From: a bacterium
GTDB taxonomy: Bacteria > Patescibacteriota > Dojkabacteria > JAKAPS01 > JAJZLI01
Length of the DNA stretch: 62,792 nucleotides
Direction of reading: 5' to 3'
NCBI GenBank assembly: GCA_021785355.1
Contig: JAJYFR010000005.1
Coordinates: forward strand, 1-62,792
In this document: positions 1,966 to 44,798 of the stretch, in pieces
Numbering within the stretch: the stretch's first letter is position 1
Layout: each line of letters starts with the position of its first letter
Program-made: the position numbers and the translations under genes
Notes under the pieces: generated by a model
What the model saw: only the letters and a program-made list of their open reading frames with translations
Told to the model about the DNA's origin: nothing
The model's database searches: none

Positions 1966-2915
1966 GATAGACTAGATCCACAATTAGAACAAAATTTTGC
2001 AGTTGCAAGATTCTGTGTTTGACAATTTTTACATACAATCATTGATTGTTGTTGTGCAGTATTATTTTGATTCATCATATTATTCATCATCCCAAAACCT
2101 ATTCCTGCAGCAATTCCTGCTCCTGCAACAGATGCATTACCTGATGAATTTTCTAAACCTGTTGCTGCTCCTAACTTTATTGCAGTATCTGCAAGATTAG
2201 GATTATTATTGTATGCAATATTTCTTCTCATTTCTTTTAGAGTTGTTTCATCTTCAGGTTTTAGAGTAACTGTTAAATTTCCTAACTGAGATATTTCTAT
2301 TCCATAATTTAGAAGGAACTCTGCTGTCTTTGGAATAATTTCAGAAGAAAGATCTTCTGTTTTAGATGCAATACCTAGAATATCCCATTTATCATTAGTT
2401 ATATGATTAGATATTATTTCTCTTGTAGCTTTAAGGAGTTGATCTTGACTCCAATTTGATATTTCATCATTAGAAATTAAGTTCTGAGTACCCACAAGAT
2501 TAAGTATTAATTTAGATGGATCATTTACTTTAAGTGCAAATTCTCCAAAAACTCTAAGTCCAACAGCTAGTGTAGTATCAGGGTCTATTACATTATCTAA
2601 AAATCCTCCAAAATTAAAATTAGGAAATTCTCTTATAGAAACAAAATATACATCAGATACTAAAACATTCCCTCCAGTTGCAGAATCAATCAAACCCCCT
2701 AAAAATGGTATATTTGCTCCATCTAATTTGTGTTGCCCTTGCTCTATTATTCCTGCTACTACACCTTGTTTTATAAATAAACATACTTCATCAGGTTGTA
2801 CAGTTAATACTGAAAGCATCCTTATATTATTATCAAGATACTTATATACTATCTGATCCTTACTATTATCAGGTCTAGATATAAATTGTGCTTGTATTGG
2901 ATTAAATAATGACAT
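1962..2915 (-). CDS. SPFH/Band-7 domain protein (virion-core-like subgroup) with C-terminal zinc ribbon
   Basis: 317 aa. The N-terminal SPFH-like fold pattern (QFISRPD...VCLFIKQG) is followed by a Gly/Ala/Asn-rich linker and then CKNCQTQN...CSNCGSSL. Confidence 0.6.
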   Translation of the reverse strand: MSLFNPIQAQFISRPDNSKDQIVYKYLDNNIRMLSVLTVQPDEVCLFIKQGVVAGIIEQGQHKLDGANIPFLGGLIDSATGGNVLVSDVYFVSIREFPNFNFGGFLDNVIDPDTTLAVGLRVFGEFALKVNDPSKLILNLVGTQNLISNDEISNWSQDQLLKATREIISNHITNDKWDILGIASKTEDLSSEIIPKTAEFLLNYGIEISQLGNLTVTLKPEDETTLKEMRRNIAYNNNPNLADTAIKLGAATGLENSSGNASVAGAGIAAGIGFGMMNNMMNQNNTAQQQSMIVCKNCQTQNLATAKFCSNCGSSLS

Positions 2916-3267
2916 ATTTAAATATTTTATACATAAATTTAAATACGAATATACAATAAATTAATACAAAATACAACAAACTAAAAACTGTTAAAATATT
3001 ACAAAATTAGTACTATATCAATCTTAAAAAAGAGAACTTATTAATTATATTGTTATCTTTTTAACAAACTTCTATAATGTATGCTATTAATTATTTTATA
3101 AAAGATATAAAGTTATAAAGAATATGAAAAAATATTCAAGAAGCAATATTACTTTATTTAGAAAAAACAAATAAATTACAAACAAAACAATAAATTTTAT
3201 AAATAATCTTAAATTTAATAACATTAATATTTTTAGAAGATTATAATAAACATCACTATAAGTAATT

Positions 3268-6014: not shown

Positions 6015-7241
6015 TCATTCATATCTAAGAGCTTCAATAGGAGATAATCTTGAAGCTTTATATGCAGGAAAAATACCAAATATAAGCCCTATTGTAATTG
6101 AAACTGTAATTGAAAGTATAATTGCTAATGAAGATATAATAAAAGGCACTTTTATTATATAAGAGGCCACTACATAATCAAGAAATATTCCAATAAAAAC
6201 ACCTATAAATCCTCCTATAATAGTTATTAGAATAGCTTCTACTAAAAATTGATATAATATATCACTATTTTTTGCACCAACAGCTTTTCTTAATCCTATC
6301 TCCCTAGTTCTTTCTGTTACAGAAACAAGCATTATATTCATAATTCCTATTCCTCCTACGATAAGAGATATACCTGCAATTCCTCCTAGTAAAAGTGTGA
6401 AGGTCCCTGTTATGGTATTTAGTGTTGTAAGTATCTGAGTTTGATTAGTAATATTAAAATTAGCTTGATTTACATTTGTAATTCCTTGCACTCTCATTAA
6501 AGTATTTTCTACTTCAGCTGTAGCCTCATTCATAACACTAGCACTACTTGCTTGTAATGTTATTGAACTGTATCCTACATTTCCAAATAATTCTGACTGT
6601 GCAGTACTAATAGGTATTGCAACTTGATTATCTTGATTAAAAGAACCTCCTGTAGATCCCTTAGATTGAGTAATACCAATTACAGTAAAAGATCTATTTC
6701 CAATAGTAACAGATTTTCCCATTGGATTCGAATTTGGAAAAAGCTCACTTGCAACAGTAGGACCCAATACAATTACAGGTAAATTATATTTTATATCAGG
6801 TTCTGTAATAAAAGATCCTTTTTCCATTGTAATATTATTTACTATTTGTGCCGATGGAGTGACACCCTCTATTAATGTAACTGCATTTTGACTTTTATAT
6901 ATAAGCTCTCCTGATTTACTAATAACAGGAGAAATGGCTATAACATCAGGTGTATTATTTTGAGAACTAAGTGCTACTACATCATTCTGATTAAGAGTAT
7001 TTGCAGTTCCTATTCCTTGTCTAACATTACCAACTTTAGCATTTCCAGACGTTACTATAATAAGATTCGATCCAAGATTCTGAATATTTTGAGTAATTTT
7101 AGACTGAGTACCCTGACCAACAGATATTAAAGCTATAACAGAAGCTATCCCTATAATAATACCAAGTGCTGATAATATAGTTCGTCCTAGATTAATAGTC
7201 AGAGAATGAATAGATGTATAAAGTAATTTTTTGAATGTCAT
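6015..7241 (-). CDS. ABC transporter permease, MacB/FtsX family
   Basis: 408 aa. It has an N-terminal TM helix, a large extracytoplasmic domain and three C-terminal TM helices with a typical FtsX-family end (AYKASRLSPIEALRYE). Confidence 0.85.
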   Translation of the reverse strand: MTFKKLLYTSIHSLTINLGRTILSALGIIIGIASVIALISVGQGTQSKITQNIQNLGSNLIIVTSGNAKVGNVRQGIGTANTLNQNDVVALSSQNNTPDVIAISPVISKSGELIYKSQNAVTLIEGVTPSAQIVNNITMEKGSFITEPDIKYNLPVIVLGPTVASELFPNSNPMGKSVTIGNRSFTVIGITQSKGSTGGSFNQDNQVAIPISTAQSELFGNVGYSSITLQASSASVMNEATAEVENTLMRVQGITNVNQANFNITNQTQILTTLNTITGTFTLLLGGIAGISLIVGGIGIMNIMLVSVTERTREIGLRKAVGAKNSDILYQFLVEAILITIIGGFIGVFIGIFLDYVVASYIIKVPFIISSLAIILSITVSITIGLIFGIFPAYKASRLSPIEALRYE

Positions 7242-7927
7242 ATTCTTTGTTGTTTTATAATTTTATCTTCAATTAATACTCCGTCTTTAAGCATAATTTT
7301 TCTTTTTGCTCTATTTCCTATATCTTCCTCATGTGTAACTATTACTATTGAGTGACCTTCATCATTTAGATCTTGTAGAATTTTTATAATTTCTAGTGTT
7401 GATTTTGAATCCACATTACCTGTAGGTTCATCTGCTAATATTAAAGTTGGTTCTTGCGCTAATGCTCTTGCTATAGCAACTCTTTGTTGTTGCCCTCCAG
7501 ATATTTGATTTGTTTTAAAATATGCACGTTTATCTATTCCTAATTTTTTGAGAATTTCCATTGCTTTTTTCTCTGCAATATCAGTATTCTCACCTCTATA
7601 CAGAAGAGGTAATATAACATTCTCTATTACAGTAGTGCGAGGGAGAAGGTTAAATGCTTGGAATACAAAACCTATATATTTATTTCTTACAGATGAAAGT
7701 TCTCTTTCTTTTATATCTATAGTATTTACTCCGTCTAGTATATATTCTCCTCTTGTGGGTTTATCCAAAAGTCCCATTATATGCATTAGTGATGATTTTC
7801 CTGAACCTGAAGCTCCCATAATACTTACATATTCACCTGATTCTATTTGAAGATTAATATTGTTAAGAGCAATAACTTCATTTTCTACATCACCATATAT
7901 TTTATATATATCTTTTAGTTTAATCAT
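7238..7927 (-). CDS. ABC transporter ATP-binding protein (MacB/LolD-like)
   Basis: Walker [10 protein letters not shown], signature [14 protein letters not shown] and Walker B ILADEPTG. Confidence 0.9.
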
Positions 7928-9243
7928 AATCCTAACTGTTTACCCAGTCCTTTTGCCTTCCCTCCTATATTTTTTGTACTAGAAGACTTTATATGGAATG
8001 AACTATTCCCATTTATAACAATTTTATTTCCTAAAGAAAGTCCACTTACTATTTGTGTATAATATATATTACTAATTCCTGTTTTAACAAATCTTCTTAT
8101 CTGGTGACCTTTTTGATCAAGTATTACAAACGGTTGTCCTTGTGTTGTATAAATTAGTGCAGAATTTGGTATTAATAAAACATTATTAGCACTCTTAGTT
8201 ATTATGTTTACATTCGCACTCATTCCAAGTTTAATTCCAGAAGGAGCATTGTGAATACTTATAGTTACACCGTAATTTACTACATTTTGTATAATAGTAG
8301 ATGATGGCTCAATTGATGTTACAACTCCTCTAAATGTTTGATTTGGATAAGCAGTTAAAGTTATACTTACATTTTGTCCAATAGATACACTTGCTATTGA
8401 ACTTTCATCCACATATGCAAATATTTGAGCAGATGATGTATCTGCAATAGTAATAAATGAATTACCTGCAACATTTGATATACCACTTTGTGCAGAAGAA
8501 ATTCCTTTAGAACCTCCTTGAGAAGAAGCACCTACTTGCTCATTTGGTGCTATAGAAGAAAGAAATATAACAGTTCCTGAAATAGGAGATATAAGTGTTG
8601 CTTGAGAAAGATTATTCTGTGCTTGCTCTAAATTTATATATGCATTATTTTTAGCATCTATAAGTGGAGCAAGGTTATAGTAGAGAGGTTCTTGTTGAGC
8701 ATTTACAAGATTTTGTTGATCATTTTGCACTAAAGTATTATCAGTCTGTACTTTTGCTAGTATTGATGAATAATTAGGTGATGTAGTTGAAGTAGATTGA
8801 AGTGTTATTTGGTCTGCATTTAAAGTAGATTCTGCTTGATTTAGAACATTTTGAGCATTTTGTACATCTTGGGAAGCTTGTCCATAAAGAGCATTTATTT
8901 TTTGTTGAGCTATATCATAATTATTTTGAGCTATTTGAACATTTTGAGAAAGAATAGTTGTATCTAAAGTTGCTAATTTTTCTCCTATTTGTACATTTTG
9001 ACCATCTTTAACATATACTTGTGCTAGTTTTCCAGATATAGGGAAATTTAACTCTGTCATATTACCAAAAACTACATTTCCGACGGAAGAAACATTTTGA
9101 GTTATACTACCAGTTTTAATTGTATATAATTTAATGGTTTTTTGTTTTGTTATTACAAAAGAGTTATATATAAAATATATTACTCCTAAGACAATAATTG
9201 CTAATACTATTTTTGCAATAAGACTTTTTTTTATTATTTTCAT
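7924..9243 (-). CDS. HlyD/MacA-type membrane fusion (periplasmic adaptor) protein
   Basis: 439 aa. It has an N-terminal TM helix, a lipoyl-like segment (GQNVQIGEKLATLD), a long Q/N-rich coiled coil and a beta-barrel C-terminus. It overlaps both neighbouring genes. Confidence 0.8.
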   Translation of the reverse strand: MKIIKKSLIAKIVLAIIVLGVIYFIYNSFVITKQKTIKLYTIKTGSITQNVSSVGNVVFGNMTELNFPISGKLAQVYVKDGQNVQIGEKLATLDTTILSQNVQIAQNNYDIAQQKINALYGQASQDVQNAQNVLNQAESTLNADQITLQSTSTTSPNYSSILAKVQTDNTLVQNDQQNLVNAQQEPLYYNLAPLIDAKNNAYINLEQAQNNLSQATLISPISGTVIFLSSIAPNEQVGASSQGGSKGISSAQSGISNVAGNSFITIADTSSAQIFAYVDESSIASVSIGQNVSITLTAYPNQTFRGVVTSIEPSSTIIQNVVNYGVTISIHNAPSGIKLGMSANVNIITKSANNVLLIPNSALIYTTQGQPFVILDQKGHQIRRFVKTGISNIYYTQIVSGLSLGNKIVINGNSSFHIKSSSTKNIGGKAKGLGKQLGL

Positions 9244-9611
9244 TATATTACTATTATAAATTTAGCTATAATACCGTTTTTAGAATGTAGACCAATAACA
9301 CTTATTGTTACTCCATTTTGTAAAGTACTCACATTCTCTAAACTATTACCTCTATATATTTTTGTATTTTTATTTATATTTATATTTGTACCATTAATAG
9401 TGATACTCTTTGCAGTTATATTACTTATATTACCTTCTTCTTGTATAAATACAGTAGGTTTTGTTTTTCCTTTAGATGAAATAGTACTACTACTTACATT
9501 TCGTTTACCTTTATGATGTAATACTTTATGAGGTATTAAATAGCCTATTATTCCAAATATAATAGCTACAATTATTAAAATAATAATGTTCCTTATTTTT
9601 TGATTTTTCAT
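9243..9611 (-). CDS. Single-pass membrane protein with beta-rich C-terminal domain; paralog of 44340-44798
   Basis: 122 aa. The C-terminus NISNITAKSITING...KTKIY...IAKFIIVI aligns with NISNNSITINN...KTSIY...IARFVIVIK of 44340-44798. It is the first gene of the efflux operon. Confidence 0.65.
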   Translation of the reverse strand: MKNQKIRNIIILIIVAIIFGIIGYLIPHKVLHHKGKRNVSSSTISSKGKTKPTVFIQEEGNISNITAKSITINGTNININKNTKIYRGNSLENVSTLQNGVTISVIGLHSKNGIIAKFIIVI

Positions 9612-9646: not shown

Positions 9647-9674
9647 ATACAATATTTTATATAAAAATGTTTCA
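9647..9674 (-). promoter_or_regulatory. ECF-type promoter candidate, TGAAAC-N17-TGTAT
   Basis: The minus strand reads TGAAAC ATTTTTATATAAAATAT TGTAT. It ends 35 nt upstream of the ATG at 9611. The same architecture occurs at 17609, 17643, 44248 and 44279. Confidence 0.6.
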
Positions 9675-10388: not shown

Positions 10389-11090
10389 TTATTCAAAAAT
10401 CTCAATACTATCCTCTGCGCCTGTTGTAGATAATAAAGACATCATTTCTTTATATTGAGAATTATACTCCTCTCTAGCTTTTTCACCATGATAAATTCCC
10501 ATACCAGCCAAGCTTAAAGATGTAAGTTCTAAACCTCTTTTTACAAATTCATTATCTGTATCATTAGTTGCAATAGCACATACTAAAGATATAAGTTTTT
10601 CTGCCATAGCTTTCTTACCTCTCTTTGAAGTAGGGAGCACTAGTTTATCTCCACTAGAATTATGTGTTGATTTTCTAAGTTTAGTATAATTATGTGATGA
10701 TTTTAATGCCCATATAGATTTTATGCCCTCTTGTCCTAATATACTTAGAATTGCAACTTTACTCATAGGACTTACTCTTGGTGCAAAAGAAGCTGCAGAT
10801 GAAACTATTAATATGCTCAATGTATCAGAAATTTGATCTCCCATAGCTCCTATTTTTGTAGTTCCAATATTTAATTCTGGAAAATTTTTATCAAAAAATC
10901 TTGCAACTTTACCATCCATATCTGATAATGCCATAAGTGCAATAATAGGCGTAATAGGTTTTTCTCCTGCTAAAAGCATTTTATCTACTAACAAAGCTAA
11001 TGCAGGTCTACTCAGTGTCATTATATTAGCCGGAGTAATTAATCTGTCTTTTTTTTCTTGAATATTGTCAGTATGCCTTAAATTTTCCAT
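10389..11090 (-). CDS. CDP-alcohol phosphatidyltransferase-like protein (divergent)
   Basis: DGKVAR...GAMGDQISD fits DGx2AR...Gx3Dx3D, but the spacer is longer than canonical. The C-terminal half is not obviously hydrophobic. Confidence 0.4.
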   Translation of the reverse strand: MENLRHTDNIQEKKDRLITPANIMTLSRPALALLVDKMLLAGEKPITPIIALMALSDMDGKVARFFDKNFPELNIGTTKIGAMGDQISDTLSILIVSSAASFAPRVSPMSKVAILSILGQEGIKSIWALKSSHNYTKLRKSTHNSSGDKLVLPTSKRGKKAMAEKLISLVCAIATNDTDNEFVKRGLELTSLSLAGMGIYHGEKAREEYNSQYKEMMSLLSTTGAEDSIEIFE

Positions 11091-12492: not shown

Positions 12493-12581
12493 TAATATTC
12501 ATATAAACTTTTATTGACTTCATAATTGTATAATATGATATTTTATATATCAATAAAAATGAATTGCATTTATAGTTAATA

Positions 12582-13055
12582 TTGAGCATAATAGAGCATA
12601 TGTATAGAAAAGGAGTTGCTGCAATTATATTAAATGATAAAAATCAAATATTATTGGTTAATCTTACGACATTTGACTCTAAATTTTTTTCTATACCAGG
12701 AGGAGGATCAGAAAAAGGAGAAAGTGATATAGATACTATAAAAAGGGAACTTTTAGAAGAATTAGGAATTGAATCTTCAATGATTGAAGTTATAAAAAAA
12801 TCATCTACCTTATATAAATTTAATTTCAAATCAATAACCATTAAAGATGGGAAAAAATATAAAGGACAAAAAAAAGTTTGTTTTTTAGTAAAATTTAATG
12901 GAACCGATAAAGATATAAAGATATCAAAAGATGAAATAAGAAAATATTTATGGTCTGATTATAAAGATTTGGATAAATATTTGTTATTTGAAGAACAATT
13001 AGAAAGTATACAATTTTTTATTAAAGATTTGTGCCCATATATTATAAAAATATGA
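12582..13055 (+). CDS. NUDIX hydrolase
   Basis: Nudix box GGGSEKGESDIDTIKRELLEELGI. The ORF opens with TTG at 12582; the ATG at 12600 is an alternative start. Confidence 0.75.
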   Translation: MSIIEHMYRKGVAAIILNDKNQILLVNLTTFDSKFFSIPGGGSEKGESDIDTIKRELLEELGIESSMIEVIKKSSTLYKFNFKSITIKDGKKYKGQKKVCFLVKFNGTDKDIKISKDEIRKYLWSDYKDLDKYLLFEEQLESIQFFIKDLCPYIIKI

Positions 13056-14756: not shown

Positions 14757-15947
14757 TTATATCTGTGTATCGAGTATTTCATTCTTTCTTCGCTCCCTTT
14801 TATCATATTTACTATATTTACCCACTAATATATTTAGATATGGTATCTGCATTATTAAAAGAACAATAGACAAAGAAATTAATACCGTTAACATCCATCC
14901 TAGTATAATTATTATTCCTCCTATATATGGAATATTATTATATTTATAAATAGGGAACATTATATTACTTGATACCATATTAAGTATAATTGGATGTATC
15001 AAATATATTCCAAATGCTGCTTCTGATACTATCAGAAAAAATTTAACTAAACTTTTATTTATCTTTTTTAATAAATGGATTTTATTTTTACTAATACTTA
15101 AAGATATTTTATATAATATAAATATTAGAGATAAACTGTAACTAATAACTAAAGGTTGATCAAAAGAAGATGCTATTGCTATAGGAAGATGAAATACTAA
15201 TATCTCTATATAATAACTTAATAATAATACTAGAGTTGATAGTATGAAAAATAAAATAAATTTAAAATAATTTTTCTTAAATTCTTTTTCAATATCATTT
15301 ACATATAGTGCAAAAAATCCTCCAAGGAATATATATACAAGATAAAATAATATAAACCTATATTGAATATGAGTAAGTCTTAAAACAAATTTATAATTAG
15401 TATTATTTACCTTTAAAAAGAAATAAGTATAACTCATTAATAAAAATTGAAATATACCTAAGGATAATAGAGTTATAAAAACTTTATCTTTTAATTTATT
15501 TAATATTTTTATAAAAAAAGGTAATAGTATGTATAATTGTATTGCAAGAAGAATGTAATATAACTGATACTCTGCAGAACCTGTTATGATAGCATATACA
15601 TAATTATATAAACTAGGATTCTTTATGTATAAAGCAACATATATAATACTCCATATAATATAAGGAATTATTATACCTAAAGTCCTTTTCTTCCAAAAAT
15701 TTATTAAATTAAGATTGGGTTTATTGTAAACATAAACTAACACAAATGCTGTTATAAAAATAAATGTTTGACGATTATATCTTAATAACAGTAATATCAT
15801 AAACTGAATTATAGACCAAAAATTATTAGTATCTACAAAGGTTATAGTACCTACTGTATGCATAGCAACAACACTAATAACTGTAATACCTCTTATGATA
15901 TCTGCTTCATATCTATGATTTACATTTCTTTTTTTAATTATGCTCAA
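14757..15947 (-). CDS. Acyltransferase-3 family membrane protein (OafA/WecH-like)
   Basis: 396 aa and polytopic. The N-terminal YEADIIRGITVISVVAMH is typical of the family. It is a close paralog of 19157-20296. Confidence 0.8.
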   Translation of the reverse strand: MSIIKKRNVNHRYEADIIRGITVISVVAMHTVGTITFVDTNNFWSIIQFMILLLLRYNRQTFIFITAFVLVYVYNKPNLNLINFWKKRTLGIIIPYIIWSIIYVALYIKNPSLYNYVYAIITGSAEYQLYYILLAIQLYILLPFFIKILNKLKDKVFITLLSLGIFQFLLMSYTYFFLKVNNTNYKFVLRLTHIQYRFILFYLVYIFLGGFFALYVNDIEKEFKKNYFKFILFFILSTLVLLLSYYIEILVFHLPIAIASSFDQPLVISYSLSLIFILYKISLSISKNKIHLLKKINKSLVKFFLIVSEAAFGIYLIHPIILNMVSSNIMFPIYKYNNIPYIGGIIIILGWMLTVLISLSIVLLIMQIPYLNILVGKYSKYDKRERRKNEILDTQI

Positions 15948-15959
15948 AAATTTATTCCT

Positions 15960-17579
15960 TTATTTTTTTAAGAATATTATTTTATTTTCTTCTAAATATT
16001 TTAGAATTTTATCAATACTTTCTTTTATAGACAACTGAGAAGTATCTATGACAATTTCGGCTCTCTGAGGTACTTGATATGGATCATCTATACCTGTCAT
16101 TTTCATTCCTTTATTATTTTGTGCAGAATTATATAAACCCTTTACATCTCTATTAATACAAATATCTAGTGGAGTAGATAGATAAATTTCTATGTATCTA
16201 CCATGCTTAGATATAAGCTCTCTATTTTTTAATCTAGATGAGTTATATGGAGCTATTGCAGAACAAATAGCTATTCCTCCATGTTTTGTGATTTCATTTG
16301 CTACAAAACCAATTCTCTCTATATTTATATTTCTATCATCCTTAGAAAATCCTAAACCTTGTGACAGATTATTTCTAACAACATCCCCATCTAACAAAGA
16401 TATAGATCTTTCTTGAATTTCTTGTAATTTTATATATAAATGTTTTGCTAATGTTGATTTTCCAGAAGAAGGAAGTCCTGTGAAAAATATAGTTAGACCA
16501 TCTCTATTATTCCTAAAATAACCTTTTTTAATCTCTTCAATTACTTCTGTGAAAGAAAACCAACTAGGAATCTCTTTTCCTTCTGATATCATTTTTCTAA
16601 ATTCAGTACCAGATATATTTTTTATCTTTTGATTTTTATTTATTTTATCTATTTCAAAATATTTATCTTCATCCTCTACATATACCATCTCTTGAAATGG
16701 TATCATTTCTATTCCAATGTCTTTTTCATACATCTTAACTAACTCCTGAGCATCATATGCTCCATAAAAATCGTTTCCCTGACTATCCTTAGGCTCTGCA
16801 TGATGTCTTCCTACTATAAAGTGAGTACATCCGTAGTTTTTTCTTATAATGGCATGCATAAGAGCTTCTTTTGGGCCTCCCATTCTCATAGCTAAAGGAA
16901 GTAAAGATATCTGAGAAAAATCATTAGCATATTTATTCTTTATATGAATATATGATTTTACCCTTGTTATATAATCTATATCACCATCATTTGTAACTCC
17001 TACAGAAGGATGGATAAGAACCTTAATTCCATAATTATCATAAACACTCTTTATCATATAAAAATGAGCTTTATGTATAGGATTTCTCGTTTGAAAAGCA
17101 CATACCTTATCCCAATTATTGTCTTTAAACCATTTTTTTAACTCTTCTGGGGTATGTCTATATTCTGAAAAATCAAATCTATCTATATCATTAATTTTCT
17201 CCACATTTCCTCCCAAAGCGAATTTATGAGTTTTATTCATTATATAATTAACTCCATAATGCTCTCTATTAGAAGTACCATACACACTCTCTACTTCTTT
17301 ATCCTTTTGTAGTTTAAAAATAGAAGAGATATTAATAATAGCTATTGGTTTTCCATACTCATCTGACAGCTGTATTCTATCCCCAATACTAAACTCATCT
17401 ATATTATCTACATCAAGTATTATAGGAATAGGCCATAAAACACCACTAGGTAATCTCATGTTCTCTATAACAGATATATATTCTTCTTCTTCCATAAAAC
17501 CCTTTAATGGAAAGAATCCTCCATTCATTATTAATTCTAAATCACATAATTGTCTTTCTGTTAGTTTAATCTTCTTCAT
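15960..17579 (-). CDS. Bifunctional sulfate adenylyltransferase / adenylylsulfate kinase (PAPS synthesis)
   Basis: ATP sulfurylase motifs QTRNPIHKAH and GRHHAEP. The C-terminal APS kinase has P-loop GLPSSGKSTLA and LDGDVVRNNLSQGLGFSKDDRNINIERI. Confidence 0.9.
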   Translation of the reverse strand: MKKIKLTERQLCDLELIMNGGFFPLKGFMEEEEYISVIENMRLPSGVLWPIPIILDVDNIDEFSIGDRIQLSDEYGKPIAIINISSIFKLQKDKEVESVYGTSNREHYGVNYIMNKTHKFALGGNVEKINDIDRFDFSEYRHTPEELKKWFKDNNWDKVCAFQTRNPIHKAHFYMIKSVYDNYGIKVLIHPSVGVTNDGDIDYITRVKSYIHIKNKYANDFSQISLLPLAMRMGGPKEALMHAIIRKNYGCTHFIVGRHHAEPKDSQGNDFYGAYDAQELVKMYEKDIGIEMIPFQEMVYVEDEDKYFEIDKINKNQKIKNISGTEFRKMISEGKEIPSWFSFTEVIEEIKKGYFRNNRDGLTIFFTGLPSSGKSTLAKHLYIKLQEIQERSISLLDGDVVRNNLSQGLGFSKDDRNINIERIGFVANEITKHGGIAICSAIAPYNSSRLKNRELISKHGRYIEIYLSTPLDICINRDVKGLYNSAQNNKGMKMTGIDDPYQVPQRAEIVIDTSQLSIKESIDKILKYLEENKIIFLKK

Positions 17580-17608: not shown

Positions 17609-17636
17609 ATACATAAAAAATAGAGAAAATGTTTCA
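17609..17636 (-). promoter_or_regulatory. ECF-type promoter candidate, TGAAAC-N17-TGTAT (drives the PAPS synthase arm)
   Basis: The minus strand reads TGAAAC ATTTTCTCTATTTTTTA TGTAT. It ends 29 nt upstream of the ATG at 17579. Confidence 0.6.
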
Positions 17637-17642
17637 ATTGCA

Positions 17643-17670
17643 TGAAACATTTTCTTAATTTATATTGTAT
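17643..17670 (+). promoter_or_regulatory. ECF-type promoter candidate, TGAAAC-N17-TGTAT (drives the adenylate-forming enzyme arm)
   Basis: The plus strand reads TGAAAC ATTTTCTTAATTTATAT TGTAT. It ends 42 nt upstream of the ATG at 17713. Its -35 is the other half of the palindrome AAAATGTTTCA-ATTGC-ATGAAACATTTT. Confidence 0.6.
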
Positions 17671-17712: not shown

Positions 17713-19179
17713 ATGGAATCTTCGTATTATAATAAAAACTTATATAGTAAACTTGAGTTTTGGGCAATAAAAAATCCTAATAAAACTTTTATATATGACA
17801 CTCAAAGTAGCATACACTTAAGCTACTTTGAGACAAAAAATATTGTAGACAATATTATTTTCTATCTCTCAGATAAAAAACATACTATTATGTTTATTGA
17901 TGAAAATAACACACTTTCTTCAATACTTTGGATAGCAGCTCTTTCTGGAGGTCATAGAATAATACCTCTACATTCTCAGGTATCTGAAGCTGATCTAGAA
18001 AAATTAATTGAATATTTTAATCCTGATTTATTTATAACAAATAGAACTTCAGATATTATAGATAAAGTTAAGACAATAATAAAAGAAGAAGACCTTTTAT
18101 ATAATTTAAAAAAATCAAAATCTATAGGTGAGATTAGAGATGAAGGTATCGTTTATCTTACTACATCAGGAAGTACAGGAACCCCTAAAAAAATTGCTCT
18201 CAAAGAAAGTCAGCTTTATAATACAGCTTTGAATGTAGTAAAAGTCCACGAATCAAAAGAAAATGATGTGTGTCTAAACTTTTTATCCTTCTCCCATATA
18301 AATGCACCTGTAATAGCTCTATTCTCAACTTTAATATCAGGAGGTACTATTATAAATTCTAAATTTAGTAAAACTAATTTTTGGAAAATTACAACAGAAC
18401 TTAAAGTAACATGGGTAAACGCTGTGCCTACTATTATTAATATACTTTTAGAAACAAATCATAATAAAAAAAGTAATATAGGATTTATAAGAACAGGTAG
18501 TGCACCTATATCTAAAAATATAATCACAAAATTTGAAAAAAAATTTGATATTCCTATAATTGAAACTTACGGTGCAACTGAATCTTGTAGTCAAATAACT
18601 GCAAATAATAAGAATTTAAGAAAAATTGGATCTGTAGGGAAACCTCAGGGACTAGAACTTATTATCTGTAATAAAGATAAAGATATTCTAGAAGAATTGG
18701 ATTCTAATACTGTAGGGGAAGTATGTATAAAAGGATTTAGCGTTATAAAAAAATATGAAGATAAAGGTTTCGAGAATAATTTCATAAATGGTTTTTTTAA
18801 AACAGGAGATTTAGGATATAAAGATAAAGATGGTTTTATTTTTCTTACGGGAAGAAAAAAAGATATTATTATATCTAAAGGTGAAAATATTTATCCAAAA
18901 GAAATAGAGGATACTTTAATAAAATATGAAGGCATAAATGAGGTTGCTGTTATAGGAGAGAAAGATGATATTCTAGGAGAGAGAGTTGTAGCATTTATAG
19001 TATTAGAAGATAAATATGATTTCAAAGAAGAACATTTTAACAATTGGATAGAAGCCAGGTTATCTAAATATAAAATACCTCATAAATTATTATTTGTAGA
19101 AGATTTTCCAAGATTAAGAAGTTATAAAATAGATAAAATGAAATTAAGAGAATACATTGATGATAAAAAAACAATCTAA
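17713..19179 (+). CDS. AMP-dependent synthetase/ligase (adenylate-forming enzyme)
   Basis: AMP-binding motif TTSGSTGTPKK, then TGDLGYKDKDGFIFLTGRKKDIIISKGENIYPKEIE. No carrier-protein gene is seen nearby. Confidence 0.85.
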   Translation: MESSYYNKNLYSKLEFWAIKNPNKTFIYDTQSSIHLSYFETKNIVDNIIFYLSDKKHTIMFIDENNTLSSILWIAALSGGHRIIPLHSQVSEADLEKLIEYFNPDLFITNRTSDIIDKVKTIIKEEDLLYNLKKSKSIGEIRDEGIVYLTTSGSTGTPKKIALKESQLYNTALNVVKVHESKENDVCLNFLSFSHINAPVIALFSTLISGGTIINSKFSKTNFWKITTELKVTWVNAVPTIINILLETNHNKKSNIGFIRTGSAPISKNIITKFEKKFDIPIIETYGATESCSQITANNKNLRKIGSVGKPQGLELIICNKDKDILEELDSNTVGEVCIKGFSVIKKYEDKGFENNFINGFFKTGDLGYKDKDGFIFLTGRKKDIIISKGENIYPKEIEDTLIKYEGINEVAVIGEKDDILGERVVAFIVLEDKYDFKEEHFNNWIEARLSKYKIPHKLLFVEDFPRLRSYKIDKMKLREYIDDKKTI

Positions 19180-20296
19180 AAAATTACGAAGATATGAAGC
19201 TGATATTCTAAGAGGAGTTACCATATTCTCTGTAATGGGAATGCATACAGTTGCAACCATAACATATATAGATACAAATAATACATATCTATATATTCAA
19301 TATCTTATAATATTACTATTTAGATATAATAGACAAGTCTTTATTTTCATAACAGCATTTATACTAGTATATATATATAACAGACCTGATTTTAATGTAA
19401 GAGAATTTTTTAAAAAAAGAATTTTCTCAATTATAATACCCTATATAATCTGGAGTATTATATATGTCTTTATATTTAATAGACATGCAACTTTATGGAA
19501 ATATATATATGATATACTTACAGGCTCTGCTTATTATCAATTGTACTATATCCTTCTTGCAATTCAATTATATCTACTCTTACCATTTTTTATAAAAATA
19601 CTAAATAAACTTAAAGATAAAACAGTAATAACCCTTACAATTGTTAGCATAATTCAAATTTTAATTATAAGCTACACTTACTTTTATTTAAAAAATATAC
19701 CAGATAAATCAACCTTAGATAATATAATATTAGCAATTCAAGATAAATTCATACTCTTCTATATAGGATATATATTTATGGGAGGATTTATAGCTTTGCA
19801 TATAAATAAATTTGAGAGAGAAGTAAAAAAATATATAAAACAAATATATGTATTTTTTGCACTATCATTTATAGCAACAATTCTCTCATATATAATAGAG
19901 ACAAAAATATTCAACCAATCTATCTATTATGCATCTTCCTTTATGCAACCTATGATAATTATATATAGTATATCTATAATACTATTATTTTTTTCTATCA
20001 CACTTAATTTTATAAATAAAACAAAAGATATTAATAATAATAAAATAATAAAATTCATTTTTTTAGTCTCTGAAAGTTCTTTTGGTCTATATCTTATACA
20101 TCCAATAATTTTAGATATAATATCTTATCTTTTATATTTTCTAAGATTATATATACCAGGAGTAATACTTGTAATATTAGGATGGTTTATAACATTTTTA
20201 ATTTCTCTTTTAATAGTAGTTATAGCCCTAAATATTCCTTATATTAATTTTCTAGTAGGGAAGTTCAAGAGAAAAATAGATTTATTTAATGCTTAA
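19157..20296 (+). CDS. Acyltransferase-3 family membrane protein, paralog of 14757-15947
   Basis: It shares long identical blocks with 14757-15947, for example RYNRQxFIFITAF, IIPYIIWSIIYV and YQLYYILLAIQLYxLLPFFIKILNKLKDK. Confidence 0.8.
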   Translation: MMIKKQSKKLRRYEADILRGVTIFSVMGMHTVATITYIDTNNTYLYIQYLIILLFRYNRQVFIFITAFILVYIYNRPDFNVREFFKKRIFSIIIPYIIWSIIYVFIFNRHATLWKYIYDILTGSAYYQLYYILLAIQLYLLLPFFIKILNKLKDKTVITLTIVSIIQILIISYTYFYLKNIPDKSTLDNIILAIQDKFILFYIGYIFMGGFIALHINKFEREVKKYIKQIYVFFALSFIATILSYIIETKIFNQSIYYASSFMQPMIIIYSISIILLFFSITLNFINKTKDINNNKIIKFIFLVSESSFGLYLIHPIILDIISYLLYFLRLYIPGVILVILGWFITFLISLLIVVIALNIPYINFLVGKFKRKIDLFNA

Positions 20297-21203
20297 AAAA
20301 ATAATTATGAATGAAAAAAAAAGATTTAACATAAAAGATATAAGTTCAAAAGAAATATCTTCTCATATAATTTTTGAAGATAAAAATAAAATACCAAATA
20401 TGATTTGTGGTATAGCACCTTGTAGAACTGGAACTACAGCTCAATTAAAAGTTTTTGCAGGAGGAGAAATAGACGCTTACTATCAACCTATAAAAAGTAT
20501 ATTAAGACGTATTGCATTTGATTCTGATTATGAAGATTTTATAATACCTAGCAAAGATATAATTTTTATAAAAGAAACAATAGGTCCATATTCTTATGCA
20601 GAATCTAAATTTAATCCTATTGAAGTATTAGAAAATATTAACTATCCTAAATCAAAACTGAAATTAATATTTGAAATGAGAGATCCTATAGATGCGTATC
20701 TTTCGTGGATTAATCAATTTTTATCACATGAAGAATATAGAGAACAGATGCTTGATTTATTTATATTATCATATAAAACAGTTAACGATATGATAGATAT
20801 AGCAAAGAAAAATAGCTATATATCTATACCTTATATTTATGAGTCTATAAAAGATAATATCCCTGAGGATGTTATATCAAAATTATTTAAACTACTTGAT
20901 ATTGAATTTAGAGAAAGTGCTATTAGAGGATGGGATAACAAAGATATTGAATCTAAAATTCATTTTGCAAAAGAACCTGAGGTTTATGAACCGTTGAATT
21001 TACATGATGAAATGAAAAAATCTGAAGGATTGAAATATAATGCAAAACCAATCGAATATATCAAATCAATTCTAAGAAAAGATGAGATAGAAAAAATACA
21101 AAAAAGTGAAATATATTCTATATATCAAAAACTCATAGAAGAACAAGAAAAGGTTTTTGATATAAAAATTAATAAAGATTTTAGAATAAAGTATTTATTA
21201 TAA
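20289..21203 (+). CDS. Sulfotransferase family protein (putative PAPS-dependent)
   Basis: A 5'-PSB-like motif (IAPCRTGTTAQL, compare PKxGTTxL) and a 3'-PB-like motif (MRDPIDAYLSW, compare RxPxDxxxS). It lies in the same locus as the PAPS synthase. Confidence 0.6.
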   Translation: MLKKIIMNEKKRFNIKDISSKEISSHIIFEDKNKIPNMICGIAPCRTGTTAQLKVFAGGEIDAYYQPIKSILRRIAFDSDYEDFIIPSKDIIFIKETIGPYSYAESKFNPIEVLENINYPKSKLKLIFEMRDPIDAYLSWINQFLSHEEYREQMLDLFILSYKTVNDMIDIAKKNSYISIPYIYESIKDNIPEDVISKLFKLLDIEFRESAIRGWDNKDIESKIHFAKEPEVYEPLNLHDEMKKSEGLKYNAKPIEYIKSILRKDEIEKIQKSEIYSIYQKLIEEQEKVFDIKINKDFRIKYLL

Positions 21204-21297: not shown

Positions 21298-21326
21298 TTG
21301 ACCGACATATATGTATGATGTATAAT
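21298..21326 (+). promoter_or_regulatory. Near-consensus sigma-70 promoter of vapBC
   Basis: TTGACC-N17-TATAAT. The spacer contains the palindrome ACATATATGT. The -10 ends 9 nt before the vapB ATG at 21336. Confidence 0.6.
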
Positions 21327-21335
21327 TCATATATT

Positions 21336-21584
21336 ATGATTAGAACACAGATTTATATACCTGAAAATTTACATAAAAAACTTATATATTTAGCCGAGAA
21401 AAAAAATAAATCTATGGCTGAGTGTATACGTATTTTTATTAAAGAAGGAATCAAAAAAGATGAGACTTTAGATATTAGTGGAAAAGATGTATTAAAAAAG
21501 ATATCTCTTTTAAACTTTGTTGGAGGGAATAAAGATATGTCTTCTAAAATAGATGAAATTATATATGGTAATGGAAAAAAATAG
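21336..21584 (+). CDS. vapB: Ribbon-helix-helix (CopG-like) antitoxin
   Basis: MIRTQIYIPENLHKKLIYLAEKKNKSMAECIRIFIKEG shows the RHH pattern. I prefer the start at 21336 because the longer ORF from 21315 would include the promoter -10. Confidence 0.65.
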   Translation: MIRTQIYIPENLHKKLIYLAEKKNKSMAECIRIFIKEGIKKDETLDISGKDVLKKISLLNFVGGNKDMSSKIDEIIYGNGKK

Positions 21585-21993
21585 TAAAAGAGTAATTTTT
21601 ATTGATTCAGACATATTTATAGCATTATCCAAAAGTGATGACAGTAACCATGATAAAGCTTTAAAAATTCTGAATAAATTCTTTGATGAAATTATTTTTA
21701 CTACATCTAATTATGTAATATCTGAGGTGATTACAGTTTTAAGTATGCAATTGGGTCATTCTCAAGCCTTAGATTTTATCAATACAATTAAATCTGAAGA
21801 AAACATATTCTCAATAAATTGGGTAGATGATAAAGTTGAAAACTTGGCGATAGAAATTTTTAAAAAACAAACATCAAAAAATACAAGCTTCACTGATTGC
21901 ACTAATATGGCCTTTATAGAAATGTTAAAATTGGATGGAATATTTAGCTTTGATAGTGTCTATAAGAAAAATAAATGTGTCATTTTAGAATAA
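21571..21993 (+). CDS. vapC: PIN-domain toxin (VapC family)
   Basis: VIFIDSDIFIAL (first acidic residue), a central SEV and FTDCTNMAFIE. It overlaps the antitoxin 3' end. The start could also be 21553. Confidence 0.7.
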   Translation: MEKNSKRVIFIDSDIFIALSKSDDSNHDKALKILNKFFDEIIFTTSNYVISEVITVLSMQLGHSQALDFINTIKSEENIFSINWVDDKVENLAIEIFKKQTSKNTSFTDCTNMAFIEMLKLDGIFSFDSVYKKNKCVILE

Positions 21994-42199: not shown

Positions 42200-43123
42200 A
42201 TGGATAATATATATAATAATATAATACTAGGATCAGGACCTGCAGGTATAACTGCTGCTATTTATGCAGCTAGGTCTAATCTTAAACCTTTATTACTTTC
42301 AGGTGATACGGAAGGTGGACAACTTATTGTTACCTCTTTAGTAGAAAATTTTCCTGGATTTGAAAATGGAATATTAGGTCCAGATCTAATGAATAACATG
42401 ATAAAACAGGCAGAGAATGTTGGAGTAGAGTATATACGTGAAAGTGCAATAATGGTAGATCTAAAAAATTATCCATTAAAAATTGTAACTGGAAAGAATA
42501 CATATCTGACAAAAAGCCTTATTATTTCAACAGGAGCTACTGCAAAATGGTTAGATATACCAGGAGAAAAAGAATTAATGGGAAAAGGAGTTTCAGGTTG
42601 TGCAACATGTGATGGAATGTTTTTTAAAGAAAAAGAAATTGTAGTAGTAGGAGGAGGGGATAGTGCGATGGAAGAAGCTTTATTTTTAACTAAATTTGCA
42701 TCAAAAGTAACAATTATTCATAGGAAAGATTCTTTTAGAGCATCCTCTATAATGCAGAAAAAAGTTTTTGATAATCCTAAAATAGAAATTCTATTCGAAA
42801 GTGAAGTTGTTAAAATTAATGGAGATATGAAAGTTGTAAGTATAAATATAAAGAATAAAGATAGAGAATATGAATTTCCTACAGAAGGAGTATTTATAGC
42901 TATTGGACATAATCCAAATACTTCTATTTTTAAAGATCAAATAGATTTGGATGGTAATGGATATATAAAAGTTAAAGATAATACCAAAACTAATATAGAA
43001 GGAGTGTTCGCCGCAGGAGATGTTGCAGATCCTATATACAGACAAGCTATATCATCTGCAGGAATAGGATGTATTGCTGCAATAGATGCTCTACATTATT
43101 TGGAAAATTCTAAGAAATTATAA
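42200..43123 (+). CDS. trxB: Thioredoxin-disulfide reductase
   Basis: GSGPAG FAD motif, redox centre CATCDG and GGGDSAMEEA NADPH motif. Confidence 0.92.
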   Translation: MDNIYNNIILGSGPAGITAAIYAARSNLKPLLLSGDTEGGQLIVTSLVENFPGFENGILGPDLMNNMIKQAENVGVEYIRESAIMVDLKNYPLKIVTGKNTYLTKSLIISTGATAKWLDIPGEKELMGKGVSGCATCDGMFFKEKEIVVVGGGDSAMEEALFLTKFASKVTIIHRKDSFRASSIMQKKVFDNPKIEILFESEVVKINGDMKVVSINIKNKDREYEFPTEGVFIAIGHNPNTSIFKDQIDLDGNGYIKVKDNTKTNIEGVFAAGDVADPIYRQAISSAGIGCIAAIDALHYLENSKKL

Positions 43124-43486
43124 GACATATAGGATACCTTTTGATTTAGATATTATCTTTATGTATACATACTCATTCTTTTTTAATACATTTCTACTTA
43201 AAACTTTTCCCTGAGCAGATAATATTTTAAAATGATCTATAAAGAAAATATTCTTATATTTATTAAGATCAATTATAGATATTGTTTTTTTTGATATACT
43301 ATATATCTTACCTACATAATGATCATTATTCATTGATATTTGTTGATTTACAGCAAAATGTCTTTTATATCCAAAAAATCTCAGATGAGAGCCAACAATT
43401 GCACCAAAAGCAAATATGCCAAATAATACTATTGCTATTACTATTCCTAGTATAAATGAAATTAAAATAAGTTTACTTTTCTCCAT
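43118..43486 (-). CDS. Single-pass membrane protein with beta-rich C-terminal domain (last gene of the ECF sigma operon)
   Basis: 122 aa. It has the same architecture as 9243-9611 and 44340-44798, with weaker similarity (GKIYSISKKTISII). Confidence 0.6.
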   Translation of the reverse strand: MEKSKLILISFILGIVIAIVLFGIFAFGAIVGSHLRFFGYKRHFAVNQQISMNNDHYVGKIYSISKKTISIIDLNKYKNIFFIDHFKILSAQGKVLSRNVLKKNEYVYIKIISKSKGILYVL

Positions 43487-43734
43487 AAAATTTTAAATCT
43501 TGATATTGAATATATAATTACTGCCATTGATAATGCTGCTAAAAACACATAATAAATATTAGGAATCTGATAAACAGAAAGAATTATTACAAAAATAAAA
43601 GTTGAGATTAATAACCCATATAAAAATGGATATAGATATAAATATCTCTTCTCAATCTTCTTAATTTTATTAAAGACATTTTCATTAAAATTTTCACTCA
43701 ACATTTCATTTTTATACATAATCTTTAATTTCAT
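43462..43734 (-). CDS. Putative anti-sigma factor (small two-TM protein)
   Basis: Assigned by position immediately after and overlapping the ECF sigma gene. No HxxxCxxC motif is present, so the call rests on context only. The start is uncertain (43734, 43719 or 43704). Confidence 0.4.
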   Translation of the reverse strand: MKLKIMYKNEMLSENFNENVFNKIKKIEKRYLYLYPFLYGLLISTFIFVIILSVYQIPNIYYVFLAALSMAVIIYSISRFKILWRKVNLF

Positions 43735-44233
43735 TTTTTAATAAATCTTTAGCCCTTCTAATCCTTGTTTTTACAGTATTTATAGAAATATCTAATAAAT
43801 TTGATATCTCTCCATATTTAAAACCTTCTATATAATACATAGTTAATACTTTCTTATATTTATCTCCTATATTCTTTAATCCTAAATATAATAATTCCTT
43901 ATTTTCTACTTGACTCTCAGTATTGTTAACCTCTTCAAGCTCATATGTTAAATTATACATTTTTCTTTCTTTTAATTTATTAATTGTAGTTCTTCTTGCT
44001 ATAGTAAATATCCATGTAGAAAAAGAACCTTTGTCTGGATTAAAAGAAGACAATTTAAAATATACTTTAACAAAGATATCTTGAGTTATGTCTTCTGAAT
44101 CCTCTGCAGAAGAAAGATATTTTAAAACAAAATTATATATTCTGTTCTTATATCTATTCATTAGTATTTCAAAGAACTGAATATCCCCAGTTGAATTTAA
44201 TTTTTTTATAATATCTTCATCACTACAATCCAT
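43712..44233 (-). CDS. ECF (group IV) RNA polymerase sigma factor
   Basis: 173 aa. Region 2 reads DITQDIFVKVY...WIFTIARR. Region 4 HTH reads YGEISNLLDISINTVKTRIRRAKDLL. Confidence 0.85.
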   Translation of the reverse strand: MDCSDEDIIKKLNSTGDIQFFEILMNRYKNRIYNFVLKYLSSAEDSEDITQDIFVKVYFKLSSFNPDKGSFSTWIFTIARRTTINKLKERKMYNLTYELEEVNNTESQVENKELLYLGLKNIGDKYKKVLTMYYIEGFKYGEISNLLDISINTVKTRIRRAKDLLKNEIKDYV

Positions 44234-44247
44234 ACTCTTATTATAAT

Positions 44248-44275
44248 ATACAATTAATAAATATAATATGTTTCA
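44248..44275 (-). promoter_or_regulatory. ECF-type promoter candidate, TGAAAC-N17-TGTAT (autoregulatory, sigma operon)
   Basis: The minus strand reads TGAAAC ATATTATATTTATTAAT TGTAT. It ends 14 nt upstream of the sigma ATG at 44233. Confidence 0.6.
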
Positions 44276-44278
44276 TAA

Positions 44279-44306
44279 TGAAACATTTTTATTACTTATA
44301 ATGTAT
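44279..44306 (+). promoter_or_regulatory. ECF-type promoter candidate, TGAAAC-N17-TGTAT (divergent partner)
   Basis: The plus strand reads TGAAAC ATTTTTATTACTTATAA TGTAT. It ends 33 nt upstream of the ATG at 44340. Its -35 is the other half of the palindrome ATGTTTCAT-A-ATGAAACAT. Confidence 0.6.
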
Positions 44307-44339
44307 ACTAATATAGTTAAATTTAAATTAAAAAATATT

Positions 44340-44798
44340 ATGGATAAAAATAATCAAACAGAACATAGTGAAAAATTTCATCATTCTTTGCATAAAAGAA
44401 AATTGATTTTTCTTTTAGTAGGTATAGTATTATTAATCTTATTTTTCTTTTTTGGAATATTTGTAGGAAGAGTAAGCGGATATTTAAGAAATTCTAATTT
44501 TGAAAGAAACAACATGAGGGGATACTCTTCTAGAAACGGAATGATGAGAAATTTCAGAAATTCTTCAAATTCTAGAAGAATACAACTTTCAGATGTACAA
44601 GGAGTTATACAGAATATAAGTAATAATAGTATAACAATAAATAATAGAAGTTATTCTATATCAACAAAAACTTCTATATATAATAATGGTATAAGAGAAA
44701 GCTTAAGTAATCTTTCAAATTTAAATACAGTAAATTTAATCTATTCTGTGGATAAATCTGGATTAGATATAGCACGTTTTGTAATTGTTATAAAATAA
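44340..44798 (+). CDS. Single-pass membrane protein with beta-rich C-terminal domain; paralog of 9243-9611
   Basis: I prefer the ATG at 44340, because the ORF-track start at 44268 would include the promoter palindrome. It has a TM helix, an R/N/S-rich linker and then NISNNSITINN...IARFVIVIK. Confidence 0.65.
   Translation: MDKNNQTEHSEKFHHSLHKRKLIFLLVGIVLLILFFFFGIFVGRVSGYLRNSNFERNNMRGYSSRNGMMRNFRNSSNSRRIQLSDVQGVIQNISNNSITINNRSYSISTKTSIYNNGIRESLSNLSNLNTVNLIYSVDKSGLDIARFVIVIK

Follow-up and report, generated by a model that had tools for sequence, protein, structure and literature searches.

A predicted autoregulated regulon of a SigW-like ECF sigma factor in an uncultured Patescibacteria bacterium

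The stretch of DNA considered here, hereafter the window, comprises 62,792 bases of contig JAJYFR010000005.1 from an uncultured member of the Patescibacteria, or candidate phyla radiation (CPR), and it carries a gene for a sigma factor of the extracytoplasmic function (ECF, group IV) type together with five copies of a bipartite, promoter-like motif, TGAAAC-N17-TGTAT. Its GC content is 25.8% and its coding density about 93%, and at gathering thresholds no Rfam family was found anywhere in it, hence no tRNA, rRNA or riboswitch. The sigma gene (43712..44233, minus strand) encodes a SigW-like protein of 173 aa and heads a run of three genes, in which each of the two downstream genes overlaps its upstream neighbour: a gene for a 90-aa protein (43462..43734, minus strand) and one for a 122-aa protein anchored by a transmembrane (TM) helix (43118..43486, minus strand). 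On the other side of an intergenic region of 106 bp (44234-44339) lies a divergent gene for a TM-anchored DUF5666 protein of 152 aa (44340..44798, plus strand), and this short region contains two of the five motif copies.

The identity of the sigma factor follows from its domains. Pfam recognizes Sigma70_r2 (6.9e-19, residues 24-90) and Sigma70_r4_2 (1.5e-12, residues 125-163) and neither region 1 nor region 3, which, together with the size of the protein, is the make-up of an ECF sigma factor, and the score against TIGR02937 (sigma70-ECF) is 95.9, above the cutoff of 42.9. The best specific match in NCBIfam is SigW, at scores below the equivalog cutoffs (100.7 vs 209 for NF007223 and 96.4 vs 243.1 for TIGR02948), and the best match in the PDB is SigW of Bacillus subtilis (5WUQ, 4.7e-21). 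The two proteins are alike in the helix of region 4.2 that reads the DNA (TVKTRIRRAK in the window, TVKTRIHRGR in SigW), and judged by these matches SigW is the nearest characterized relative. No second sigma-like gene was found in the window by tblastn.

The gene that follows the sigma gene, and overlaps its stop codon, encodes a protein with a cytoplasmic N-terminus of about 35 aa and two TM helices, and a gene for a two-TM protein of 90-95 aa overlaps and directly follows the sigma gene in all of the aligned orthologous loci (6/6). Neither this protein nor its orthologues match any Pfam or NCBIfam family, and it shows no zf-HC2 or RsiW match and no extracellular domain; its position and conservation make it a candidate minimal anti-sigma factor. 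The protein of the conserved third gene probably carries a divergent DUF5666-like domain, as suggested by an hhalign comparison with the DUF5666 paralogues (probability 65%, E 5.9e-5, 107 columns) and by one orthologue that matches DUF5666 at E 0.004. This protein also has an invariant GSHLR(F/L)xxY right after its TM helix in all six lineages, a motif that matches no known family. Wherever an orthologous locus reaches far enough downstream, the three-gene unit is kept.

The motif was searched for exactly on both strands, with dinucleotide-preserving shuffles of the window (n=100) as the chance control. There are exactly five matches, compared to a shuffle mean of 0.03, and none of the 100 shuffles reaches five. 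One is the predicted autoregulatory promoter of the sigma operon (44248..44275, minus strand), where TGTAT ends 14 nt before the ATG at 44233, and this AAC-type -35 with a GT-containing -10 just before the sigma gene is what is looked for in an autoregulated ECF sigma factor. The others are the predicted promoters of the divergent DUF5666 gene (44279..44306, plus strand; 33 nt before the ATG at 44340), of an operon headed by a gene for 3'-phosphoadenosine-5'-phosphosulfate (PAPS) synthase (17609..17636, minus strand; 29 nt before the ATG at 17579), of an acyl-AMP ligase operon (17643..17670, plus strand; 42 nt before the ATG at 17713) and of a DUF5666-YknX-ABC-MacB exporter operon (9647..9674, minus strand; 35 nt before the ATG at 9611). 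All five lie in the intergenic DNA that makes up 6.8% of the window, each oriented toward a start codon, and while the hexamer TGAAAC/GTTTCA occurs 28 times, only six occurrences are intergenic and five of these six are motif sites. AT directly follows TGAAAC at all five sites, and four of them read TGAAACATTTT, a -35 element extended by a T-tract. Allowing one mismatch adds a single match at 46048 (plus strand), within a coding region (six in total vs 2.4 expected), and allowing spacers of N15-19 before GTAT adds a single one at 10800 (plus strand), also within a coding region; since relaxed patterns add almost no matches, and not more than chance would give, the motif sites are sharply defined. 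The original prediction, in which a 28-nt motif recurred five times with the same architecture including the AT after TGAAAC, without a further N17 match in the window, always in intergenic DNA 14-42 nt before a start codon and with well under one match expected by chance, is thus borne out in each of these respects and with the same coordinates.

DNA of this base composition repeats AT-rich words easily, and TGTATA resembles a TG-extended -10 element, which could point to a lineage-specific housekeeping promoter or to a mere product of chance. However, the shuffles give 0.03 matches against the five observed, the motif is present at only five of roughly 35 transcription units of the window, and orthologues of the same genes are preceded by it in other genomes, as described below. 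The distance from TGAAAC to a TATAAT-like hexamer would moreover amount to 19-20 nt, which exceeds what a sigma-70 promoter allows, and a scan for sigma-70-type promoters in 44200-44360 found none, compared to 2.6 expected. We regard both the housekeeping and the chance explanation as highly improbable.

Conservation was followed in relatives that are Patescibacteria genomes assembled from metagenomes, their loci being labelled L001, L084, L105 and so on. In seven lineages whose sigma orthologues have 44-60% protein identity, the bipartite motif closely precedes the sigma gene: it reads TGAAAC-AAAAATATAATTTAATC-TGTAT in L001/L081/L091 (60% identity), it precedes the sigma orthologues of L084 (60%), L109 (58%), L085/L086 (51%) and L087 (44%), and it takes the variant form TAAAAC-N17-TGTAT in L089 (47%). 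The spacers of these sigma promoters are unrelated across the lineages, only the two boxes being conserved, and the genes flanking the sigma locus differ among the seven lineages. In about 150 kb of related loci there are 13 exact matches, all of them 8-42 nt upstream of a start codon, where composition would lead one to expect fewer than 0.3, and the consensus over 12 sites is TGAAACA-N16-TGTATA. The spacer is N17 at all but two sites, the exceptions being N18 in L105 and N15 in L092. The latter stems from a 2-nt deletion in the sigma promoter that separates two near-identical strains (L092 224-249, N15, vs L091 1973-2000, N17), and it probably reflects either a natural promoter-down variant of the strain or an error of sequencing or assembly within an A-run. 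Among the closest relatives (98-99%), the sigma promoter at 44k is identical in the 99% strain L112 and the promoter at 9k is identical in L111, in which the 17k intergenic region carries six substitutions, all in spacer or linker and none in TGAAAC or TGTAT. Upstream of more distant sigma genes (at most 40% identity, L002-L048) no motif was seen, a result that is little informative as the positions used there are starts of tblastn matches and not gene starts, and a profile search of metagenome contigs with the sigma alignment returned only relatives of at most 34% identity and no new orthologous loci.

The predicted target genes keep the motif as well. In L105, which belongs to the same genome as the sigma locus L082 but lies on a second contig, the orthologue of the AMP-ligase gene has an exact copy 27 nt before its ATG, a copy precedes a gene for a pyrroloquinoline quinone (PQQ)-propeller protein, and two copies stand 8-9 nt before the ATG of a gene for a 314-aa sulfotransferase-like protein, the orthologue of the 304-aa protein of the window. 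The orthologue of the DUF5666-YknXYZ operon is preceded by the motif in L107 (N17) and in L105 (N18). A gene for a GNAT acetyltransferase has the motif in L107, its orthologue has it in L084, and L084 also contains the same divergent DUF5666 gene with a motif of its own, 9 nt before the ATG. In L110, a more distant relative, TGAAAC-N17-AGTAT, with one mismatch, lies 8 nt before the ATG of the AMP-ligase orthologue. The two copies in L105 belong to a tandem duplication (12579-12710) of the motif and the first approximately 17 codons of the sulfotransferase-like gene; each of the duplicated sites (12579-12606 and 12675-12702) is 8-9 nt before a start that reads ATGAACAAA..., and the reading frame of the first copy is cut short by a stop codon.

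Conservation at the sigma gene also bears on the question of which sigma factor reads the motif. It could be a genuine ECF-type promoter read by another alternative sigma factor, with its gene beyond the window and the sigma factor at 43712 as just one of its targets; the window covers only about a fifth of the source contig, and in B. subtilis the specificities of sigma-M, -W, -X and -V overlap to the point that these factors share promoters (PMC5758882). Yet the window contains no other sigma-like gene, and in seven lineages with differing flanks the motif accompanies this sigma gene. ECF sigma factors usually autoregulate (PMC7826278), the nearest characterized relative, SigW, uses nearly the same motif, and small genomes, as suggested by contigs of 0.57-0.76 Mb, leave little room for many sigma factors. 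A different reader is therefore unlikely in our view, and we favor the sigma factor at 43712-44233 as the one that would read these promoters, perhaps exclusively.

The distance between the motif and the start codon is a further clue to its function. Among the relatives TGTAT never ends less than 8 nt before the ATG, provided that the second ATG of the L084 sigma gene, 12 nt from TGTAT, is taken as its start in place of the called start, which is only 6 nt away. At seven sites in the relatives the distance is 8-9 nt (among them L084 9928-9955 and 14385-14412; L107 5577-5604; L105 12579-12606 and 12675-12702; L110 ~7960-8000). A minimum of 8 nt, with several sites at 8-9 nt, fits a -10 element combined with leaderless mRNAs: transcription would start about 7-9 nt after TGTAT, which implies that the mRNAs of these genes are probably leaderless, and the sigma promoter of the window, 14 nt from its ATG, would leave a very short leader. 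The five target genes of the window lack a visible Shine-Dalgarno sequence, and the neighboring gene at 9801 has a strong one (AAGGGGGTGA).

At the sigma locus the two motif copies stand back to back, and their -35 elements with the flanking AT form a perfect palindrome of 19 nt, ATGTTTCAT-A-ATGAAACAT (44268..44286, no strand), within the 106-bp divergent region, as the original prediction had it. It had further described the -35 elements as overlapping, and this does not hold: the hexamers occupy 44270-44275 and 44279-44284, with a gap of 3 nt. Its start codon for the divergent gene, 44340, is confirmed by comparison with the orthologue. The longest open reading frame of that gene begins at 44268, with the ATG of the palindrome itself (MFH...), upstream of the predicted promoter, and gene callers could mis-annotate the start there. 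At 17k the corresponding arrangement is GAAAATGTTTCA-N6-TGAAACATTTTC, with perfect arms of 12 nt inside an inverted repeat of 28 nt and 82% identity.

Two inverted repeats in divergent intergenic regions, the typical place of an operator, raise the possibility that they bind a dimeric helix-turn-helix regulator of both divergent genes, TGTAT being incidental. The paired hexamers, however, are separated by 3 nt at 44k, by 6 nt at 17k and by 12 nt in L084, whereas a dimer needs a fixed spacing, and the site at 9647 and most sites of the relatives (L001, L085, L087, L109, L105, L107) are single half-sites, so that two half-sites at fixed spacing are not found at every regulated locus. An operator does not predict the near-constant N17 to TGTAT either, nor the distance of at least 8 nt to the ATG, and we consider this explanation very unlikely. 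With a varying gap, and with single sites in the majority across the clade, the palindrome does not count as a conserved unit; the description of the promoters as built on one palindrome is right as geometry and fails as mechanism, the palindrome resulting incidentally from the back-to-back placement of two promoters and not forming a functional unit. The 17k repeat could also be taken for a bidirectional intrinsic terminator or another RNA hairpin, a scan having reported stems of 14 pairs with T-rich tails on both strands (17623-17656). But the flanking genes diverge, so the region holds 5' ends and not 3' ends, the stem has only three G-C pairs, the units of the repeat are also found singly at other sites, and Rfam finds nothing in the window. 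The terminator call is a false positive that arises because T-tracts follow each -35 element, and a hairpin function is scarcely credible.

Returning to paired promoters, it is conceivable, though doubtful, that the back-to-back -35 elements are a functional device rather than a packing accident. With hexamers 9-12 bp apart (centre to centre), two holoenzymes might conceivably interact. Their sigma-4 domains would then be adjacent, in the manner of the two halves of a dimeric repressor, and binding would be mutually exclusive or cooperative. Such binding would link expression of the divergent DUF5666 gene to that of the sigma operon, and expression of the sulfotransferase/acyl operon to PAPS synthesis, either as alternatives or as an all-or-none response. 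A narrow literature search found no paper on back-to-back or divergent ECF promoters with such close -35 elements.

The predicted targets outside the sigma operon point to the cell envelope. The divergent DUF5666 protein (44340-44798) has only a weak direct match to the Pfam family and is assigned to it as a paralogue of the protein encoded at 9243..9611 (minus strand), with 31% identity over 123 aa in blastp (E 3e-13). The latter, a TM-anchored DUF5666 protein of 122 aa (Pfam 4.9e-9, above cutoff), heads the exporter operon, which continues with overlapping genes (6015..9243, minus strand) for a YknX/HlyD-type membrane-fusion protein (7924-9243; HlyD_D23/HlyD_3), an ATP-binding cassette (ABC) ATPase (7238-7927; ABC_tran) and a permease (6015-7241; MacB_PCD and FtsX). 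The presence of fusion protein, ATPase and MacB_PCD/FtsX permease is that of a YknWXYZ/MacAB-type operon, and the orthologues carry Beta-barrel_YknX and YknX_C; the first gene encodes a DUF5666 protein and not a Yip1-family YknW.

The second pair of promoters lies between two operons of a different kind. On the minus strand, a bifunctional sulfate adenylyltransferase/adenosine 5'-phosphosulfate (APS) kinase, that is, a PAPS synthase (15960..17579), scores 734.8 against NF004040 (cutoff 669) and contains the Pfam domains ATP-sulfurylase, APS_kinase and PUA_2, and 13 nt downstream follows a gene for a membrane acyltransferase (14757..15947; Acyl_transf_3, 1.2e-27) that is probably part of the same operon. 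On the plus strand, an AMP-forming acyl ligase (17713..19179; AMP-binding, 1.4e-43, and AMP-binding_C) is followed by a second Acyl_transf_3 membrane acyltransferase (19157..20296; 1.7e-31), the gene of which overlaps both of its neighbors, and by a 304-aa sulfotransferase-like protein (20289..21203). The match of this protein to Sulfotransfer_1 is weak (E 0.032, 14.1 bits vs a cutoff of 22), a PDB sequence search with the sulfotransferase-like pair gave no meaningful match, and a single-sequence AlphaFold model, with a predicted local distance difference test (pLDDT) score of 39, was unusable. It shares with its L105 orthologue the conserved segments PCRTGTT and RDPIDxYxS, which we take to resemble the PAPS-binding motifs of such enzymes (5'-PSB and 3'-PB), and it is, tentatively, probably a PAPS-dependent sulfotransferase. 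Its gene sits opposite that of the bifunctional PAPS synthase. As a whole, the cluster, with PAPS synthase, two Acyl_transf_3 proteins, acyl-AMP ligase and the 304-aa protein, looks like one for the sulfation and acylation of surface molecules, which is unexpected in a Patescibacteria genome. Directly downstream of the acyl-ligase operon there is a VapBC-type toxin-antitoxin pair (21315-21993, plus strand), made up of overlapping genes for a ribbon-helix-helix protein of 89 aa and a PIN-domain protein of 146 aa.

Taken together, these data suggest the following mechanism. TGAAAC(A)-N17-TGTAT(A) would be the promoter for RNA polymerase carrying the sigma factor encoded at 43712-44233 (minus strand), TGAAAC being the -35 element contacted by sigma region 4.2 and TGTAT the -10 element contacted by sigma region 2. 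The sigma factor would transcribe its own operon, with the genes for sigma, the 90-aa two-TM candidate anti-sigma factor and the TM-anchored DUF5666-like protein, in a positive feedback, and the membrane partner would presumably restrain it until an envelope signal releases it. It would also transcribe the divergent DUF5666 membrane-protein gene, the operon for DUF5666 and the YknXYZ/MacAB-type exporter, and the divergent operon pair whose products would serve PAPS synthesis and acyl activation and include two membrane acyltransferases and a probable sulfotransferase. Palindromes would arise where two such independent promoters stand back to back in a divergent intergenic region, and would not form one operator.

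Several observations speak against this mechanism. The window covers 62.8 kb, the contig as a whole at least 312 kb, and another ECF sigma factor encoded elsewhere could read the motif. The -10 element has TGTA and not CGTA, with a spacer one nucleotide longer than in SigW promoters, and the sigma protein scores so far below the SigW equivalog cutoffs that it is not to be counted as a SigW member. In the sigma promoters of the relatives an A-tract (TGAAACAAAAAT) takes the place of the T-tract of the window, and in B. subtilis such a replacement strongly lowers promoter activity (PMC5758882). The sparing of both boxes by the strain substitutions is by itself not significant, as six random changes would miss 22 of 133 positions with a probability of ~0.34, and the candidate anti-sigma factor has no detectable homology to any anti-sigma domain. 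Lastly, the assignment of the promoters is a prediction from the sequence of an uncultured organism. Nevertheless, the SigW-like ECF identity of the protein and the presence of the motif both at sigma orthologues and at target orthologues support the autoregulated ECF regulon originally predicted, and we consider it likely, and well supported in silico, that the motif represents promoters read by this sigma factor.

Almost nothing is known of transcriptional regulation in the Patescibacteria, with their tiny genomes and mostly uncultured members, and a literature search for ECF sigma factors together with Patescibacteria phyla found no relevant paper. From its sequence alone, the locus described here reveals a sigma factor with its promoter motif, along with a conserved envelope regulon that comprises an exporter, DUF5666 membrane proteins, acyltransferases and PAPS synthesis, as well as GNAT and PQQ-propeller proteins in relatives; for this lineage, a PAPS synthase operon is among the predicted targets. 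It may be the first readable stress regulon of the Patescibacteria, linking an ECF sigma factor to cell-surface sulfation and acylation, and it offers a starting point for the function of DUF5666 and of a minimal two-TM candidate anti-sigma factor. The system is an ordinary type of bacterial circuit, and the way in which ECF sigma factors are understood to act is unchanged by it; its value lies in a lineage without described regulons and in a compact regulon that can be tested.

The closest parallel among known systems is SigW of B. subtilis, a Firmicute and not a Patescibacteria bacterium. Published SigW promoters read tGAAACnTTTt ... CGTA, the extended -35 with its T-tract being found at SigW/SigV-responsive promoters, and replacement of the T-tract by A's strongly reduces activity in B. 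subtilis (PMC5758882). The -35 TGAAAC and the T-tract are identical here, where four of the five promoters read TGAAACATTTT-N12-TGTAT, whereas TGAAAC-N16-CGTA there is replaced by an N17 spacer and a TGTA -10. Both sigma operons appear to be autoregulated; the two sigma proteins share about 30-35% identity, below the equivalog cutoffs, and while the partner of SigW is the zinc-binding RsiW with an extracellular domain, the partner here would be the 90-aa two-TM protein. The likeness extends to the regulon through the four-gene exporter, in which a small membrane protein is combined with a YknX-type fusion protein, an ABC ATPase and a MacB-type permease, although the Yip1-family YknW is replaced by a DUF5666 protein at the head of the operon. 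The operon yknWXYZ is reportedly SigW-dependent (Butcher and Helmann 2006). YknWXYZ, with a small membrane protein in addition to YknX, YknY and YknZ, is an efflux pump for the sporulation delaying protein (SDP) (PMC4887032), and SigW induces a secondary mechanism of SDP resistance (PMC6818787). L110 has, within a few kb of its AMP-ligase orthologue, a gene of the SdpI family (SDP-toxin immunity; 2680-3006), a curious neighbor given this parallel. A module of PAPS synthase and sulfotransferase-like protein, on the other hand, sets the regulon of the window apart from that of SigW.

In a wider frame, ECF sigma factors usually autoregulate, and prediction of a regulon from autoregulation is standard practice (PMC7826278, in the main text of which candidate phyla are not mentioned). 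The window conforms to the generic ECF/anti-sigma module (Staron 2009, Casas-Pastor 2021 classification) in having a two-domain sigma factor (sigma-2 and sigma-4) that would be cotranscribed with a membrane protein from its own predicted promoter with an AAC-containing -35 and a GT-containing -10. It differs in that its candidate anti-sigma factor has no recognizable anti-sigma domain. A precedent for the paired promoters is provided by the Alphaproteobacteria, in which nepR-ecfG and phyR are served by a back-to-back divergent pair of EcfG-dependent promoters. There, as here, the same alternative sigma factor would use two outward promoters in a short shared intergenic region, one of which drives the sigma operon, but the -35 hexamers described here are only 3-12 nt apart and form a perfect palindrome at one locus.

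A last comparison concerns the acyl-transfer genes. In B. subtilis oatA is part of the sigV operon, and sigma-X, -M and -V activate dltA (PMC5758882), so that a membrane O-acyltransferase and an AMP-forming ligase, enzymes which there modify polymers of the envelope, are under ECF control as their counterparts would be here. The likeness of oatA and dltABCDE to the Acyl_transf_3 proteins and the AMP-binding ligase of the window is at the level of enzyme families, and in distinction to those systems the PAPS synthase and probable sulfotransferase encoded in the window suggest sulfation.

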